Below, piece after piece: positions 3,450 to 42,630 of a DNA stretch of 64,000 nucleotides (the first letter of the stretch is position 1; each line of letters begins with the position of its first letter). The translations under genes and the position numbers were made by a program. Location: positions 19,902,001-19,966,000 of the forward strand of contig OZ024755.1 of assembly GCA_964016885.1 (NCBI GenBank), in the 5' to 3' direction. The DNA is from Eledone cirrhosa. Lineage: Eukaryota. The notes below the pieces were generated by a model. That model was given only the letters and a program-made list of their open reading frames with translations. It had not been told where the DNA came from and searched no databases.

Positions 3450-5150
3450 GTGTGGCAGCCCAACGACTGAGTGCACCAGTAGCACATCCAGAGTGGCACC
3501 CCAATGACTGGCTGAACCAGTGGCACATGTACAGTGGCACCCCAACGACTAACTGCACCAGTGGTACATCGAGAGTGGCACCCCAATAACTGGCTGAACC
3601 AGTGGCACATGTACAGTGGCACCCCAATGACTAGCTGCACCAGTGGCACATCTAAAGTGGCACCCGAATGACTGGCTGAACCAGTGGCACATGTACAGTG
3701 GCACCCCAATGACTAGCTGCACCAGTGGCACATCTAAAGTGGCACCCGAATGACTGGCTGAACCAGTGGCACATGTACAGTGGAACCCCAATGACTAACT
3801 GCACCAGTGGTATATCGAGAGTGGCACCCCAATGACTGGCTGAACCAGTGTCACATGTACAGTGGCACCCCAATGATTAGCTGCACCAGTGGTACATCTA
3901 AAGTGGCACCCCAATGACTAGCTGCACCAGTGGCACATCTAAAGTGGCACCCCAATGACTGGCTGTACCAGTGGCACATGTACAGTGGCACCCCAACGAC
4001 TAACTGCACCAGTGGTACATCGAGAGTGGCACCCCAATGACTGGCTGAACCAGTGTCACATGTACAGTGGCACCCCAATGATTAGCTGCACCAGTGGCAC
4101 ATCTAAAGTGGCACCCCAATGACTGGCTGAACCAGTGGCACATGTACAGTGGCACCCCAATGACTAGCTGCACCAGTGGCACATCTAAAGTGGCACCCGA
4201 ATGACTGGCTGAACCAGTGGCACATGTACAGTGGCACCCCAATGACTAGCTGCACCAGTGGCACATCTAAAGTGGCACCCGAATGACTGGCTGAACCAGT
4301 GGCACATGTACAGTGGAACCCCAATGACTAACTGCACCAGTGGTATATCGAGAGTGGCACCCCAATGACTGGCTGAACCAGTGTCACATGTACAGTGGCA
4401 CCCCAATGATTAGCTGCACCAGTGGTACATCTAAAGTGGCACCCCAATGACTAGCTGCACCAGTGGCACATCTAAAGTGGCACCCCAATGACTGGCTGTA
4501 CCAGTGGCACATGTACAGTGGCACCCCAACGACTAACTGCACCAGTGGTACATCGAGAGTGGCACCCCAATGACTGGCTGAACCAGTGTCACATGTACAG
4601 TGGCACCCCAATGATTAGCTGCACCAGTGGCACATCTAAAGTGGCACCCCAATGACTGGCTGAACCAGTGGCACATGTACAGTGGCACCCCAATGATTAG
4701 CTGCACCAGTGGTACATCGAGAGTGGCACCCCAATGACTGGCTGAACCAGTGGCACATGTACAGTGGCACCCCAATAACTAGCTGCACCAGTGGCACATC
4801 TAAAGTGGCACCCCAATGACTGGCTGTACCAGTGGCACATGTACAGTGGCACCCCAATGATTAGCTGCACCAGTGGTACATCTAAAGTGTCACCCGAATG
4901 ACTGGTTGAACCAGTGGCACATGTACAGTGGCACCCCAACGACTAACTGCACCAGTGGTACATCTAAAGTGGCACCCGAATGACTGGTTGAACCAGTGGC
5001 ACATGTACAGTGGCACCCCAACGACTGGCTGTACCAGTGGCACATCTAGAGTGGCACCCGAACGACTGTCTGCACCAGTGGCACCCCAACGATTGGCTGC
5101 ATGAGTAGCATATTCTTAGTGGCACCCCAACAACTGGTTGCACCAGTTGC
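3450..5150. repeat. 41-bp GC-rich minisatellite, about 41 copies, with 82-bp and 533-bp higher-order structure
   Basis: Unit CCAGTGGCACATGTACAGTGGCACCCCAATGACT(A/G)GCTG(C/A)A alternating with a ...CATCTAAAGTGG.../CATCGAGAGTGG variant; identical ORF translations recur at a 533-bp offset. Confidence 0.97.
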
Positions 5151-7554: not shown

Positions 7555-7592
<38 letters not shown>

Positions 7593-7608
7593 ATAGATCA
7601 GTAAATAG

Positions 7609-7657
7609 TTGCTCCGAAGAATCCAAACCTCGGTTTGGAGGAAACAATTGTAAGCAA
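7609..7657 (+). ncRNA. Minimal type I hammerhead ribozyme-like motif (U4C core variant)
   Basis: TTGCT-CCGAAGA-a-TCCAAACC-tc-GGTTTGGA-g-GAAA-CAATTG-TA-AGCAA: 5-bp stem I, 8-bp stem II, palindromic stem III, GUA cleavage triplet. Confidence 0.75.
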
Positions 7658-7717
7658 ATAAATGACTTAAACTGAACTTTGATTATTGTAATCTCTCTCT
7701 CTATATATATATATATA

Positions 7718-7800
7718 GTAAATAAATCTGAATATTAAAATCCGAAGTTCCCGTTAAGGGTGAAAGCGACGATTCTTTCCTTAAACTTTAATATGTTCTT
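7718..7800 (+). mobile_element. Short TA-embedded element, family D (degenerate hammerhead)
   Basis: CCGAAGT-TCCC-GTTAA-GGGT-GAAAGCGACGATTCTTTCCTTA; homologous to both arms of 13736-13844. Confidence 0.6.
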
Positions 7801-7859
7801 ATATATACATACATATTTATATAAACATATATATATATATATACATACACTATATAGAT

Positions 7860-12900: not shown

Positions 12901-13161
12901 TATTGTGAAATAGTCCCAAACTTCTAATTCCTCAGGCTTTGAAAAGCTCCATTGATTTATTATGGGTAACCAGAATGTTTCACCGGATTTTGAAGAAAAT
13001 ACGTAAACATGCGTGATGAATTAAATGATTTAATCTGGCTGAAATATATATCTATATCCAAAATTAAGATAATCAAAATTATGGGTGTCATGCCAGAAAG
13101 ACATGCGCCATATCACCCGCAAAATAAGCTCTAAGATTCTAACTAATAGGTCCGAGCATTT

Positions 13162-13260
13162 TATAATAACTAGAAATTGATTAACATATAAATAAACATG
13201 AATAATCACATCCTGTGATTATTCATGTTTATTTATGTTAATCAATTTCTAGTTATTATA
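13162..13260. repeat. Near-perfect inverted repeat, about 48-bp arms, 3-nt loop
   Basis: TATAATAACTAGAAATTGATTAACATA(TA)AATAAACATGAATAATCACA-tcc-reverse complement. Confidence 0.95.
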
Positions 13261-13280
13261 TATATATATATATATATATA

Positions 13281-13464
13281 TTATAGAAGGAGCTTCTACA
13301 GGACTAGTACTGTTTCATTCAGATGAAATCTTCAGGAAGATTTCATCTGAATGAAACAGTACTAGTCCTGTAGAAGCTCCTTCTATAAAATAAAAAAAAA
13401 TTACTCTGCCATGTATTGAGTACCTTACTTACTGTGGTTATCCCCGACTCAACCCGGGACCTAC

Positions 13465-13466
<2 letters not shown>
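13281..13466 (+). mobile_element. Fold-back element, family C: perfect 53-bp inverted arms containing a hammerhead, plus a unique 3' tail
   Basis: Arms 13281-13333 and 13336-13388; tail with GTATTGAGTAC; flanked by (TA)n; homologous to 42491-42628. Confidence 0.8.
13293..13339 (-). ncRNA. Type I hammerhead-like motif (family C)
   Basis: CTTC-CTGAAGA-tTTC-atct-GAAt-GAAA-CAG-tactagtc-CTG-TA-GAAG; GUA cleavage triplet; U-U at 10.1/11.1. Confidence 0.6.
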
Positions 13467-13504
<38 letters not shown>

Positions 13505-13506
13505 TA

Positions 13507-13718
13507 TATTAGAAAGTGAGTTTTTTTTTACAAATTGAAAAAACTCGAGTTGTCCTACACAAGTGAAAGTATAAGGAAAACAGATGAAATCGAAAATGCA
13601 ACTGGAGTCTTTTTAAAAAAGAAATATATATTTACTTAGTTCCTTTACCGGTTTCGCAATTCTTCTGCTTTTCAAAAGTAGAATTGAGATGGAGGGTTTG
13701 TGGTTTTTCTCCCAGCCG
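13507..13718 (-). mobile_element. Short TA-embedded element, family E, with U3-A8 hammerhead at 13642-13678
   Basis: Homologous over its full length to 56049-56290 and 56891-57106; flanked by (TA)n. Confidence 0.8.
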
Positions 13719-13735
13719 TATATATATATATATAT

Positions 13736-13927
13736 AACAGATTAAAATTTAAGCAAAGAATCGCTGCTTTCACCCTTAACGGGATCTTCTGAAAATCCAG
13801 TTAAGGGTGAAAGCAGAGATTCTTTGCTTAAACTTTAATCTGTTGTTTTAATAAATATTTCCTCTATGGTTTTTATATATTTGATATATATATTATCCTT
13901 ATCGAGCCCTCTTCGGATTTTAGTCTT

Positions 13928-13930
<3 letters not shown>
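13736..13930 (+). mobile_element. Fold-back element, family D (arms 13736-13844, apex about 13790)
   Basis: Imperfect 54-bp inverted arms; right arm CTGAAAA-TCCA-GTTAA-GGGT-GAAAGCAGAG-attc-TTTGC-TT is hammerhead-like. Confidence 0.65.
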
Positions 13931-13979
<49 letters not shown>

Positions 13980-14049
13980 TTGGTTCAGTTTGAAAATGGT
14001 TAGACCATTACTCAACACTTGGTTTAGTAGATTATAATTATATGCAATG

Positions 14050-14150
14050 AATCGGGACCCGACCGCTGAGCTCTTGCCGTCCAAACAACTAGTTCCTGAC
14101 TCAGGTTCTCGCTGTTAAAACGGCAAGAGCTTAGTCGTCAGGTCCCAACT
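14050..14150. mobile_element. Older, diverged fold-back copy of family B
   Basis: GGGACCCGACCGCTGAGCTCTTGCCGT ... ACGGCAAGAGCTTAGTCGTCAGGTCCC inverted arms. Confidence 0.65.
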
Positions 14151-14169
14151 AATTATAGTATATATATAT

Positions 14170-14363
14170 ATAGGAACGAGTAGGACCCCGACGGCTGAGC
14201 TCAAGCCGTTTCGACGGCTAATTCTGGGTCCAGAATTAGCCGTCGAAACGGCTTGAGCTCAGCCGTCGCGGTCCTACTCGTTCCTATTACCCACTCTACT
14301 ACCCTAAGTATTGAGTACTCTGGTGCGTTATGGTCCAGCTGGTTCCTTACCACATTTCCTTCG

Positions 14364-14366
<3 letters not shown>
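14170..14366 (+). mobile_element. Fold-back element, family B: 58-bp arms (one mismatch), 2-nt loop, unique tail
   Basis: Arms 14170-14227 and 14230-14287; GAAA-CGGCT-tgagctc-AGCCG-TC is a hammerhead stem III with GUC; flanked by (TA)n. Confidence 0.8.
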
Positions 14367-25932: not shown

Positions 25933-26119
25933 TATAATTACCATAGACAAGCAACCCCCTCAACGTGAATTATGTTTCTCATCTTAAACACACGCTCACA
26001 TACACACATATATATATATGCATTATGCCCAGTATTGAGTACTCTACTTCCCATTCAATACAGTTAAGGTGTGTATATATAAAGGACGATTTGTTATGTC
26101 TTCATTACGTTTATTGAGT

Positions 26120-26345: not shown

Positions 26346-26384
26346 GTAAATATACACGGGTGTGTATGATTGTGTATAGAAGAT

Positions 26385-26614
26385 TATATTAATAAGAGGA
26401 ATTCCAACTTTGTCTGATTTACTCGTTTTATTTACAATCCTTTAAAATATATAATGGTATTATAATGAAATAGTATGATAGAATATTAAATTCTAAGTGT
26501 TAATTAACACTTAGAATTTAATATTCTATCATACTATTTCATTATAATACCATTATATATTTTAAAGGATTGTAAATAAAACGAGTAAATCAGACAAAGT
26601 TGGAATTCCTCTTA

Positions 26615-26622
<8 letters not shown>
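26385..26622. repeat. Perfect 238-bp spacerless palindrome
   Basis: Centre TTAA|TTAA at 26503/26504; arms are exact reverse complements by eye; right end abuts (TA)n. Confidence 0.95.
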
Positions 26623-34342: not shown

Positions 34343-35353
34343 TGTCGTCCGTACGACTCCATCAGGAGTTACCAGACTATGTCGTCCGTACGACTCAATC
34401 AGGAGTTACCAGACTATGTCGTCCGTACGACTCAATCAGGAGTTACCAGACTATGTCGTCCGTACGACTCAATCAGGAGTTACCAGACTATGTCGTCCGT
34501 ACGACTCAATCAGGAGTTACCAGACTATGTCGTCCGTACGACTCAATCAGGAGTTACCAGACTATGTCGTCCGTACGACTCAATCAGGAGTTACCAGACT
34601 ATGTCGTCCATACGACTCAATCAGGAGTTACCAGACTATGTCGTCCGTACGACTCAATCAGGAGTTACCAGACTATGTCGTCCGTACGACTCAATCAGGA
34701 GTTACCAGACTATGTCGTCCATACGACTCAATCAGGAGTTACCAGACTATGTCGTCCGTACGACTCAATCAGGAGTTACCAGACTATGTCGTCCGTACGA
34801 CTCAATCAGGAGTTACCAGACTATGTCGTCCGTACGACTCAATCAGGAGTTACCAGACTATGTCGTCCGTACGACTCCATCAGGAGTTACCAGACTATGT
34901 CGTCCATACGACTCCATCAGGAGTTACCAGACTATGTCGTCCATACGACTCCATCAGGAGTTACCAGACTATATCGTCCATACGACTCAATCAGGAGTTA
35001 CCAGACTATGTCGTCCGTACGACTCAATCAGGAGTTACCAGACTATGTCGTCCATACGACTCAATCAGGAGTTACCAGACTATGTCGTCCGTACGACTCA
35101 ATCAGGAGTTACCAGACTATGTCGTCCGTACGACTCCATCAGGAGTTACCAGACTATGTCGTCCATACGACTCCATCAGGAGTTACCAGACTATGTCGTC
35201 CATACGACTCCATCAGGAGTTACCAGACTATATCGTCCATACGACTCAATCAGGAGTTACCAGACTATGTCGTCCATACGACTCAATCAGGAGTTACCAG
35301 ACTATGTCGTCCGTACGACTCCATCAGGAGTTACAAGACCATATCGTACATAC
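34343..35353. repeat. 37-bp minisatellite, 27 copies
   Basis: TGTCGTCC(G/A)TACGACTC(A/C)ATCAGGAGTTACCAGACTA, no spacers. Confidence 0.98.
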
Positions 35354-37421: not shown

Positions 37422-37455
37422 TTTCTGATGAAGCACTTCTGTCCGAAACGTTGAA
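37422..37455 (+). ncRNA. Minimal hammerhead-like motif in family A pseudo-LTR (37380-37530)
   Basis: TTT-CTGATGA-A-GCAC-ttct-GTCC-GAAA-CG-TT-GAA; intact core, palindromic AACGTT stem III, one stem II mismatch. Confidence 0.7.
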
Positions 37456-42490: not shown

Positions 42491-42492
<2 letters not shown>

Positions 42493-42628
42493 CTAAGTTT
42501 ATCCCGGGTTCAATCGGGGGTAACCACAGTAAGTAAGGTACTCAATACAAAGCAGAGTATAAATCATCAGGCTTCCTGATGATTTCTCCCGAATGAAACA
42601 GTTCTAGTCATGTAGAAGCCTTTTCTAT
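42491..42628 (-). mobile_element. Family C element with partly deleted fold-back; hammerhead-like motif on + at 42570-42620
   Basis: GGCTTC-CTGATGA-tTTC-tccc-GAAt-GAAA-CA-gttctagtca-TG-TA-GAAGCC; tail homologous to 13400-13466; flanked by (TA)n. Confidence 0.75.
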
Positions 42629-42630
42629 AT

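Follow-up and report, generated by a model that had tools for sequence, protein, structure and literature searches.

Stacked hairpins in a (TA)n tract

The window analyzed is a stretch of 64,000 nucleotides of Eledone cirrhosa (contig OZ024755.1, positions 19,902,001 to 19,966,000 of the forward strand). Between its positions 13160 and 14420, six different families of short insertions are stacked in a single (TA)n tract, every insertion creating new TA targets. The features are listed below, with family positions counted from +1 (see the next section) and the families E and "mid" as controls.

13281..13339, minus strand: short (tail-less) arm of family C, family positions +61 to +3 (native reference L084)
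13336..13465, plus strand: long arm of family C, +9 to +138, with a one-sided tail (13389-13465), ending in (TA)n
13502..13718, minus strand: stub of the "mid" family (control), with a minimal U3-A8 hammerhead about 39-70 nt downstream of +1
13736..13794, minus strand: short arm of family D, extending to +3, with 4 mismatches to the other arm
13795..13929, plus strand: long arm of family D with tail, beginning at +12
13975..14158, strand not given: older, diverged head-to-head copy of a B-related family
14170..14227, minus strand: short arm of family B, +61 to +4
14228..14364, plus strand: long arm of family B with tail, beginning at +2, in which the native hammerhead is reduced to its 3' half
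26346..26622: family E hairpin (control), its apex 4-7 nt beyond the predicted ribozyme cut site
42491..42630, minus strand: relative of family C, with a short arm, an 8-nt snap-back extension and then the tail, the second ribozyme arm being absent

The arms of the family C hairpin (13281-13333 and 13336-13388) are perfect over 53 bp and enclose a loop that reads AG on the plus strand and CT on the minus strand; four nucleotides of microhomology, GAAG (13336-13339), are common to both arms. Read on the minus strand, the short arm has a type I hammerhead core that is intact, its helix I being 4 bp long. In family B, the 58-bp arms (14170-14227 and 14230-14287) contain one mismatch, and the GT "loop" between them corresponds to the native residues +2 and +3. 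The 53-bp and 58-bp arms of the preliminary description are thus present, the second with that mismatch. In family D, arms of 54 bp (13736-13789 and 13791-13844) with four mismatches enclose a single T. The apex CAGG-ctt-CCTG reported near 42561 is also found, with 11-bp arms (42561-42585) and a CTT loop, inside the relative of family C, which may have lost its second arm by a later deletion. In 10 shuffles of the repeat-masked window, the longest perfect arm reaches 8-11 bp by chance, so that the three long hairpins are far above chance; by length alone, the 11-bp hairpin is not. Each element is flanked by (TA)n runs and has one arm extended by a tail of 70-85 nt, the whole hairpin insertions amounting to only 140-200 bp. 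The (TA)n target masks any target-site duplication, and (TA)n arrays dominate a repeat search of the window.

A further (TA)n-adjacent hairpin with arms of about 45 bp (family F, of which few copies were seen; native ones in L056 and L194) lies at 13166-13256. Tandem arrays of 82, 37, and 26 bp occupy 3452-5084, 34343-35347, and 62498-62781.

AT-rich palindromes are prone to artefacts, and an origin in assembly or library preparation has to be considered; among the matches listed, no read or contig bridges the apex of the window copy of family C with 31 letters on both sides. Against such an origin, the arms differ by substitutions (4 in D, 1 in B), the outer ends are unequal and fixed, and inserts occur at the join. 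Moreover, another study's raw Illumina data contain opposite-strand joints of families C and D, and these recur identically in three runs. An artefact is therefore very improbable, and the hairpins of families C, B, and D are confirmed as real and recurrent across the genome.

On their sequences, the window hairpins are terminal-repeat stubs of Penelope-like elements (PLEs), because long copies of family D, promoter-bearing copies of family C, and the family E unit connect to PLE-type open reading frames. At locus L183, family D forms the terminal repeat (pLTR) of an autonomous element: an inverted arm and the terminal repeat are followed there by an ORF of 708 amino acids, with its ATG 204 nt after +1. 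This single ORF displays the motifs of a reverse transcriptase and, at its C terminus, of a GIY-YIG-type endonuclease (YRDD, IVY..YIG), together with RWR, DKT, a CxCx5C linker, CxxC, and CxH; CCHH is absent. The unit measures about 3.3 kb and has a (TA)n target. By its motifs, the element belongs to the Hydra clade, whose description in PMC8557442 agrees in DKT, CxCx5C, the lack of CCHH, CxxC, CxH, the (TA)n target, and the presence of a hammerhead; RWK is given there instead of RWR, the units are generally <3 kb, and the family D core reads CAGAAGA. Family D has >11,900 exact tail matches, whereas few families are reported in that paper. No Pfam family was found for any of the five proteins searched (5/5), and the reading of the reverse transcriptase and endonuclease motifs follows PMC8557442.

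Related ORF fragments (36-57% identity) lie upstream of promoter-bearing copies of family C, and a single fragment of 69 amino acids, in L199, is available for family B. Family E stands at the head of a 4.19-kb tandem unit whose linker is of Neptune type, and it appears to be the terminal repeat of a Neptune-type element, a clade label taken from published motif descriptions. The pLTR repeats, the inverted 5' copy, and the one-sided tail are all present (L183; inverted copies of C, B, and D), and together with the ORF of L183 they bear out the earlier attribution to Penelope-type insertions. A non-LTR retrozyme consists of tandem ribozyme-bearing monomers of a non-coding unit (10.64898/2026.07.22.740005); that reading was rejected, the copies here being single stubs or ends of ORF-bearing elements. 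Varied junctions, the one-sided tail, and the ORF-bearing parents set aside both the MITE and the retrozyme readings. At L061, three copies of family C with identical junctions lie, along with host microsatellite, in a 1.06-kb tandem that arose by later duplication at the DNA level.

The architecture itself is already described: inverted pLTRs, junction palindromes, tails, and a start site within the pLTR are known from the PLE literature. For the pLTRs of endonuclease-bearing PLEs, PMC3846280 and PMC8557442 report a head-to-head inverted and 5'-truncated copy, a palindrome at the junction, a one-sided tail, a microsatellite target, and TATA and initiator motifs within the pLTR, all as here, and the statement of the preliminary description that inverted 5' ends are known for PLEs agrees with them. 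The tails given there are of 30-40 nt, shorter than the present ones, and, unlike in those published inversions, the junction here falls at one base with an extra G.

Ends of the arms and the position +1

Copies were collected from the 3.0-Gb genome by tail patterns only and are thus not chosen by their apex; a first genome search, biased to the apices of the window itself, was left out of all counts. For family C, the first 100 of 1602 exact tail matches gave 89 copies fetched singly (3 matches in one tandem were excluded and 8 were not retrieved), and 88 after dropping L038, which lies beside L037. Family B is represented by 29 copies (30 of 36 tail matches, minus one duplicate), family D by the first 30 of 11,945 exact tail matches, and family E by 89 of the first 100 of 2280 matches. 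For the counts of family E ends (n = 80), 23 long copies were set aside and 9 copies with repeated junctions, mostly near +1, were dropped. Single promoter-bearing copies serve as reference sequences. Inverted copies make up 51/88 in C, 23/29 in B, and 10/30 in D in these tail-selected samples. The position +1 is the modal arm end (an A) and was defined from the same copies as those tested, so that the p-values are generous.

In the tail-selected copies, the arms end at -1..+2 in 52/105 cases in C, 16/46 in B, and 4/16 in D, where a uniform distribution would give 3.0, 1.3, and 0.4. Ends just upstream, at -20..-2, are rare (2 in C, 3 in B, and 1 in D), and the furthest-reaching arm stops at -1..+3 in 41 of the 51 inverted C copies and 15 of the 23 inverted B copies. 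The clustering is robust in C and B; the 4/16 of D is not significant once the data-chosen position is allowed for. In family E, 29/80 ends fall at -1..+3 and 47/80 at -1..+12, with 7/80 in the ribozyme body (+38..+73); in "mid", inspection by eye of the 17 rows listed places most non-native junctions no more than a few bases from +1. The outer ends are also fixed. The short arm starts at about +60 to +75 (+60..+72 in C, about +61 in B, and +75 in D), with expanded T runs in 5/50 short arms, and the tail ends at about +140 to +165. For family D, the depth of raw reads in three samples of another study rises about 2-3-fold across +1 and falls at +75, the opposite-strand joints being identical in all three runs; these two positions, +1 and +75, are also where loose contig ends of another organism occur (18 and 13 contigs).

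A TATA-like box precedes +1 in four of the five families, at -29 in C, -31 in B, -31 in E, and -30 in "mid" (TATAAAA in native copies). Family D has no TATA box and displays an initiator-like TTAGTT or TCAGTT. The position +1 is thus, from its sequence context, a likely capped transcription start, and by the same context it is the promoter, and not the fold of the ribozyme, that is constant across families. A start of PLE transcription within the pLTR is known (PMC2377424).

The residue preceding +1 also deserves attention. The native base there is C in family C and T in family D. A G stands 5' of +1 ends in 23/38 cases versus 30/124 at other ends (Fisher p 6e-5). Among non-native letters at -1 in family D, a hand count of the first 100 of 2445 matches gives 55 G, 23 A, and 22 C. 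Where the letter is explained by neither the promoter nor the other arm, it is G in 13 of 14 cases in D, and G in 7 and C in 6 of 13 in B. In family E, the letters before +1 ends are C (10), A (5), and G (3) (n = 18), and the excess of G is absent. A second class of ends lies at +2 with T replacing the native A (13/25), which the cap alone does not explain. At full-length L1 5' junctions, an extra G has been read as copying of the cap (PMC11702581 and PMC9341517).

The residues +1 and +2 are AG in most families, and the ends could instead mark a 3' splice site or another processing boundary, at the junction of a very short first exon. YAG does occur at -1..+2 in C, D, B, and "mid", and the 5' end of helix I is where the intron of D. 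virilis Penelope terminates (PMC4209133). But an upstream exon common to the copies is lacking: a 10-mer that matches the sense upstream region is present at non-native junctions in 0/58 cases in D, 1/48 in C, and 1/85 in B, both matches being TA-rich; the arms retain the AG itself, family E begins with AC, and the spacing of the TATA box suits a start site. A splice or processing boundary is thus improbable, and we continue with +1 as the likely transcription start.

The ribozyme as a neighbor of the likely start site

A type I hammerhead core, CUGANGA / GAAA / UH or its U3-A8 variant (a variant described in PMC4209133), is present in C, E, native B, and "mid". Family D lacks the standard core: the native sequence is CAGAAGA, in which position 4 is A, the cut site reads CUU, and helices I-III can be drawn; judged from these residues, the motif would work like a hammerhead variant at best. 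In native B, the U3-A8 core CCCC-TTGAAAA lies about 45 nt upstream of +1; the motif GACCCC-CTGANGA-GACGGC, predicted earlier for non-inverted copies of this family, was not found. The hammerhead of native B folds freely (-28.9 kcal/mol), while that of C reaches -6.8 under constraint versus -9.9 when free; in the constrained fold, D is without helix I, and E and "mid" have only a 1-bp helix III as monomers. In an Rfam scan of the window, no hammerhead family is present among the 150 matches listed of 246, those listed being matches of AT repeats to microRNA models.

In C and D, helix I begins at the +1 position, which in B falls inside a long helix II. Family E, used as a case in which start and ribozyme are separated, carries a minimal hammerhead that begins at +40; in "mid", helix I starts at +39. 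Because +1 and the ribozyme lie about 40 nt apart in these two families, the ends can be seen to follow +1 rather than the ribozyme. The helices are rarely the site of folding: of the 51 C junctions, one is on helix II (L117) and one on the palindrome of loop III (L044), and one of the 23 B junctions is on a true helix (L135). As anticipated, the breakpoints are non-uniform and in C, D, and B lie on the hammerhead or close to it, with the difference that they track +1 and not the stems. On these sequence comparisons, the ribozyme would be a neighbor of the start site and not the cause of the clustering.

The apices that had been placed within ribozyme elements are to be read accordingly with some care. 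The repeat CTTC-CT-GAAG of family C exists, but it forms no ribozyme helix, since it pairs the 5' strand of helix I with core bases 5-8. The family D hairpin with TTC-T-GAA at its apex is real, yet the apparent CTGA is created by the junction. In family B, the arms are real and the perfect "stem II" is made by the inversion, the native 5' half being different.

Native copies of family B (L124, L151, L013, and L037; about -50 to +47) have the likely start site inside helix II of a U3-A8 hammerhead. If the RNA begins at this +1, it would carry half a ribozyme, and the whole one would exist only in read-through RNA.

A minority of ends lies near predicted cut sites. In family E, the cut is predicted at +74, and 8 of the 30 ends past +12 fall close to it, at +70..+84 (p 0.006, the arms not being independent); the window hairpin belongs to this class, and further cases are L273, L312, L319, L321, and L267. 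In family C, 1 of 65 non-long copies (L073) starts exactly at the predicted cut. These ends hint that cleaved RNA may be a minor template, and the cut-site ends of family E would then be a possible record of cleavage in vivo.

Several motifs were noted in passing. Putative hammerhead-like elements in which core position 4 is A or C (CAGAAGA, CCGAAGA) occur in L183 (4945-4995) and in the window at 7590-7701 and 7718-7810. A motif scan gave a lone CTGATGA...GAAA without flanking helices at 37425-37451 of the window. In L048, a copy of family C, the ribozyme core is deleted between two short direct repeats.

Probable joining of two cDNAs at the 5' end

Genome-wide, 90 hairpins with CTTC/GAAG at the apex were compared by the polarity of the loop. 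Read toward the tail, a hand count gives 48 CT, 39 AG, and 3 AT (p 0.39 for 1:1; one locus was entered twice, both its arms having tails). If a single tail-primed cDNA folded on itself, the loop would always read CT toward the tail. The window copy of family C has the AG polarity, its loop letters deriving from the tail-less arm, and that arm must therefore itself be a first-strand cDNA. In addition, inverted copies with non-overlapping arms exist (for example, L032, L071, L075, and L100). Since both polarities occur and some arms do not overlap, two separately primed cDNAs are needed.

The arms of family B share subfamily variants (54 pairs, with a mean distance of 1.9 versus 4.5 when shuffled), so that both come from one RNA or one source locus. 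This concordance fits one RNA copied twice, snap-back, or gene conversion alike and does not separate them.

The junctions are diverse, with 43 distinct ones in 51 C copies and 23 in 23 B copies. In C (n = 51), 26 have microhomology, 6 are blunt, and 19 have inserts. The repeats used at the joins adjoin the RNA end (the AGCT palindrome, CTTC/GAAG, and AG/CT). Inserts as long as 16 nt are copied from the arm (L094, L118); templated inserts number 8/12 in C (shuffle mean 2.7, maximum 8) and 4/6 in B (mean 2.5), a weak control. Because the inserts copy the arm, as in snap-back end joining, snap-back does occur, as a step of the joining.

The preliminary description had proposed that one nascent cDNA folds back on the stems of the ribozyme and self-primes the second strand, and self-priming has also been put forward for PLE palindromes (PMC3846280). 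The small inverted repeats at the joins, the templated inserts and the copy at 42561, the single events on helix II (L117, and L135 in B), the 48/90 hairpins of the predicted polarity, and the variants shared between arms all speak for it. Thus, the use of small inverted repeats and a short snap-back can be retained. The ribozyme hairpins as the site of folding cannot: the helices are rarely used, and one cDNA cannot give the 39/90 copies of opposite polarity, the window copy among them, or the non-overlapping inversions. The cDNAs of family B stop short of the loop of helix II (3/46 ends at -20..-2), and in E and "mid" the ends lie about 40 nt upstream of the ribozymes. As the cause of clustering, self-priming on ribozyme stems is largely refuted, and we give the single-cDNA model as a whole little chance.

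A related model, in which self-priming takes place on antisense RNA, or a hairpin RNA from one master copy is amplified as a unit, draws on the antisense-template model of PMC3846280 and on the one apex type common to 90 copies. A single amplified unit is difficult to reconcile with the number of distinct junctions given above. The same subfamily variants of the A-rich stretch are found in both polarities, short-arm starts vary by slippage in the T run, and the extra G is on the sense 5' side. This model, too, is unlikely.

We prefer, and on the sequences consider probable, a double run-off: two cDNAs, each primed on its own, would both run off the template at the likely transcription start and then be joined by their 3' ends. 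The endonuclease of the element would cut both strands of the (TA)n target, and the two target 3' ends would serve as primers, each for one of a pair of start sites that the 5' terminal repeat of the RNA offers for reverse transcription. After 60-165 nt, the cDNAs would run off the cap, with the cap copied as an extra C or an A added. The facing 3' ends would then join via the nearest repeat of 1-6 nt (AGCT palindrome, CTTC/GAAG, or AG/CT), often once a short snap-back has added a few bases. Long copies retaining the promoter would result from RNA that reads through, or from priming within the 3' terminal repeat. The pattern fits twin priming of the L1 type, with both polarities and microhomology in 26/51 C junctions; the priming itself we infer.

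Parts of such a pathway are known elsewhere. In PMC11167929, the purified PLE protein (Anolis Poseidon, in vitro) cuts and extends both target strands, two start sites of reverse transcription delimit the tail, and uncleaved RNA serves as template, ribozyme cleavage not being needed; the system proposed here would be alike in all these respects. Poseidon primes without homology, whereas the start sites here abut TA/TAT matches to the target, and that work traces neither how the two cDNAs are joined nor the 5' end. In L1 twin priming (10.1101/2024.08.27.596794), two target ends likewise prime two cDNAs that join by microcomplementarity, and full-length L1 5' ends carry an extra G, as here (PMC11702581 and PMC9341517). 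The second L1 primer anneals at chance internal sites and the arms overlap little (10.1101/2024.08.27.596794). Unlike in L1, the start sites here are fixed and the two cDNAs would extend to one common 5' end, so that the hairpin is near-perfect; poly(A) is absent. Synthesis-dependent microhomology-mediated end joining with snap-back (PMC2943611), described for broken chromosomal ends in Drosophila, offers the same short templated inserts, inverted repeats at joins, and tiny hairpin primers.

The broader reading joins these elements: the inverted 5' repeat of PLEs would be a double run-off in which a single capped RNA is primed by both cut strands, at two programmed sites, a second enzyme displaces the first cDNA, and two strong-stop-like cDNAs are sealed head to head. 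Taken with readable start sites, the half ribozyme of family B, and the cleavage record of family E, we rate this whole at somewhat less than an even chance. If the double run-off is correct, the stubs map the start site of each family to the base, the capped end of family B holds half a ribozyme so that only the 3' copy is able to cut, and the minority of family E copies that starts at the cut site is a genomic record of self-cleavage in vivo.

PMC3846280 and PMC8557442 leave the mechanism of inversion open or propose self-priming on an antisense template, and PMC8557442 and PMC11167929 state the origin of inverted ends and one-sided tails as unresolved. Among titles and the openings of abstracts, we found no publication that ties PLE inversion points to a capped start or shows both loop polarities, although subscription papers or supplements could hold such a report. 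Thousands of tiny independent insertions from several families constitute a record, at the level of single bases, that separates the fold of the ribozyme, the cleavage site, and the RNA 5' end, and this record favors two-ended priming with run-off at the cap. From it follow exact predictions for the in vitro system that already exists, and the promoters of such elements become readable from DNA alone.

A motif TTGAG(T/C)AC is common to the tails or flanks of several families (window 13414-13425, 14308-14320, and 26031-26045; L183 at about 5120) and is a candidate protein-binding signal near the distal start site.
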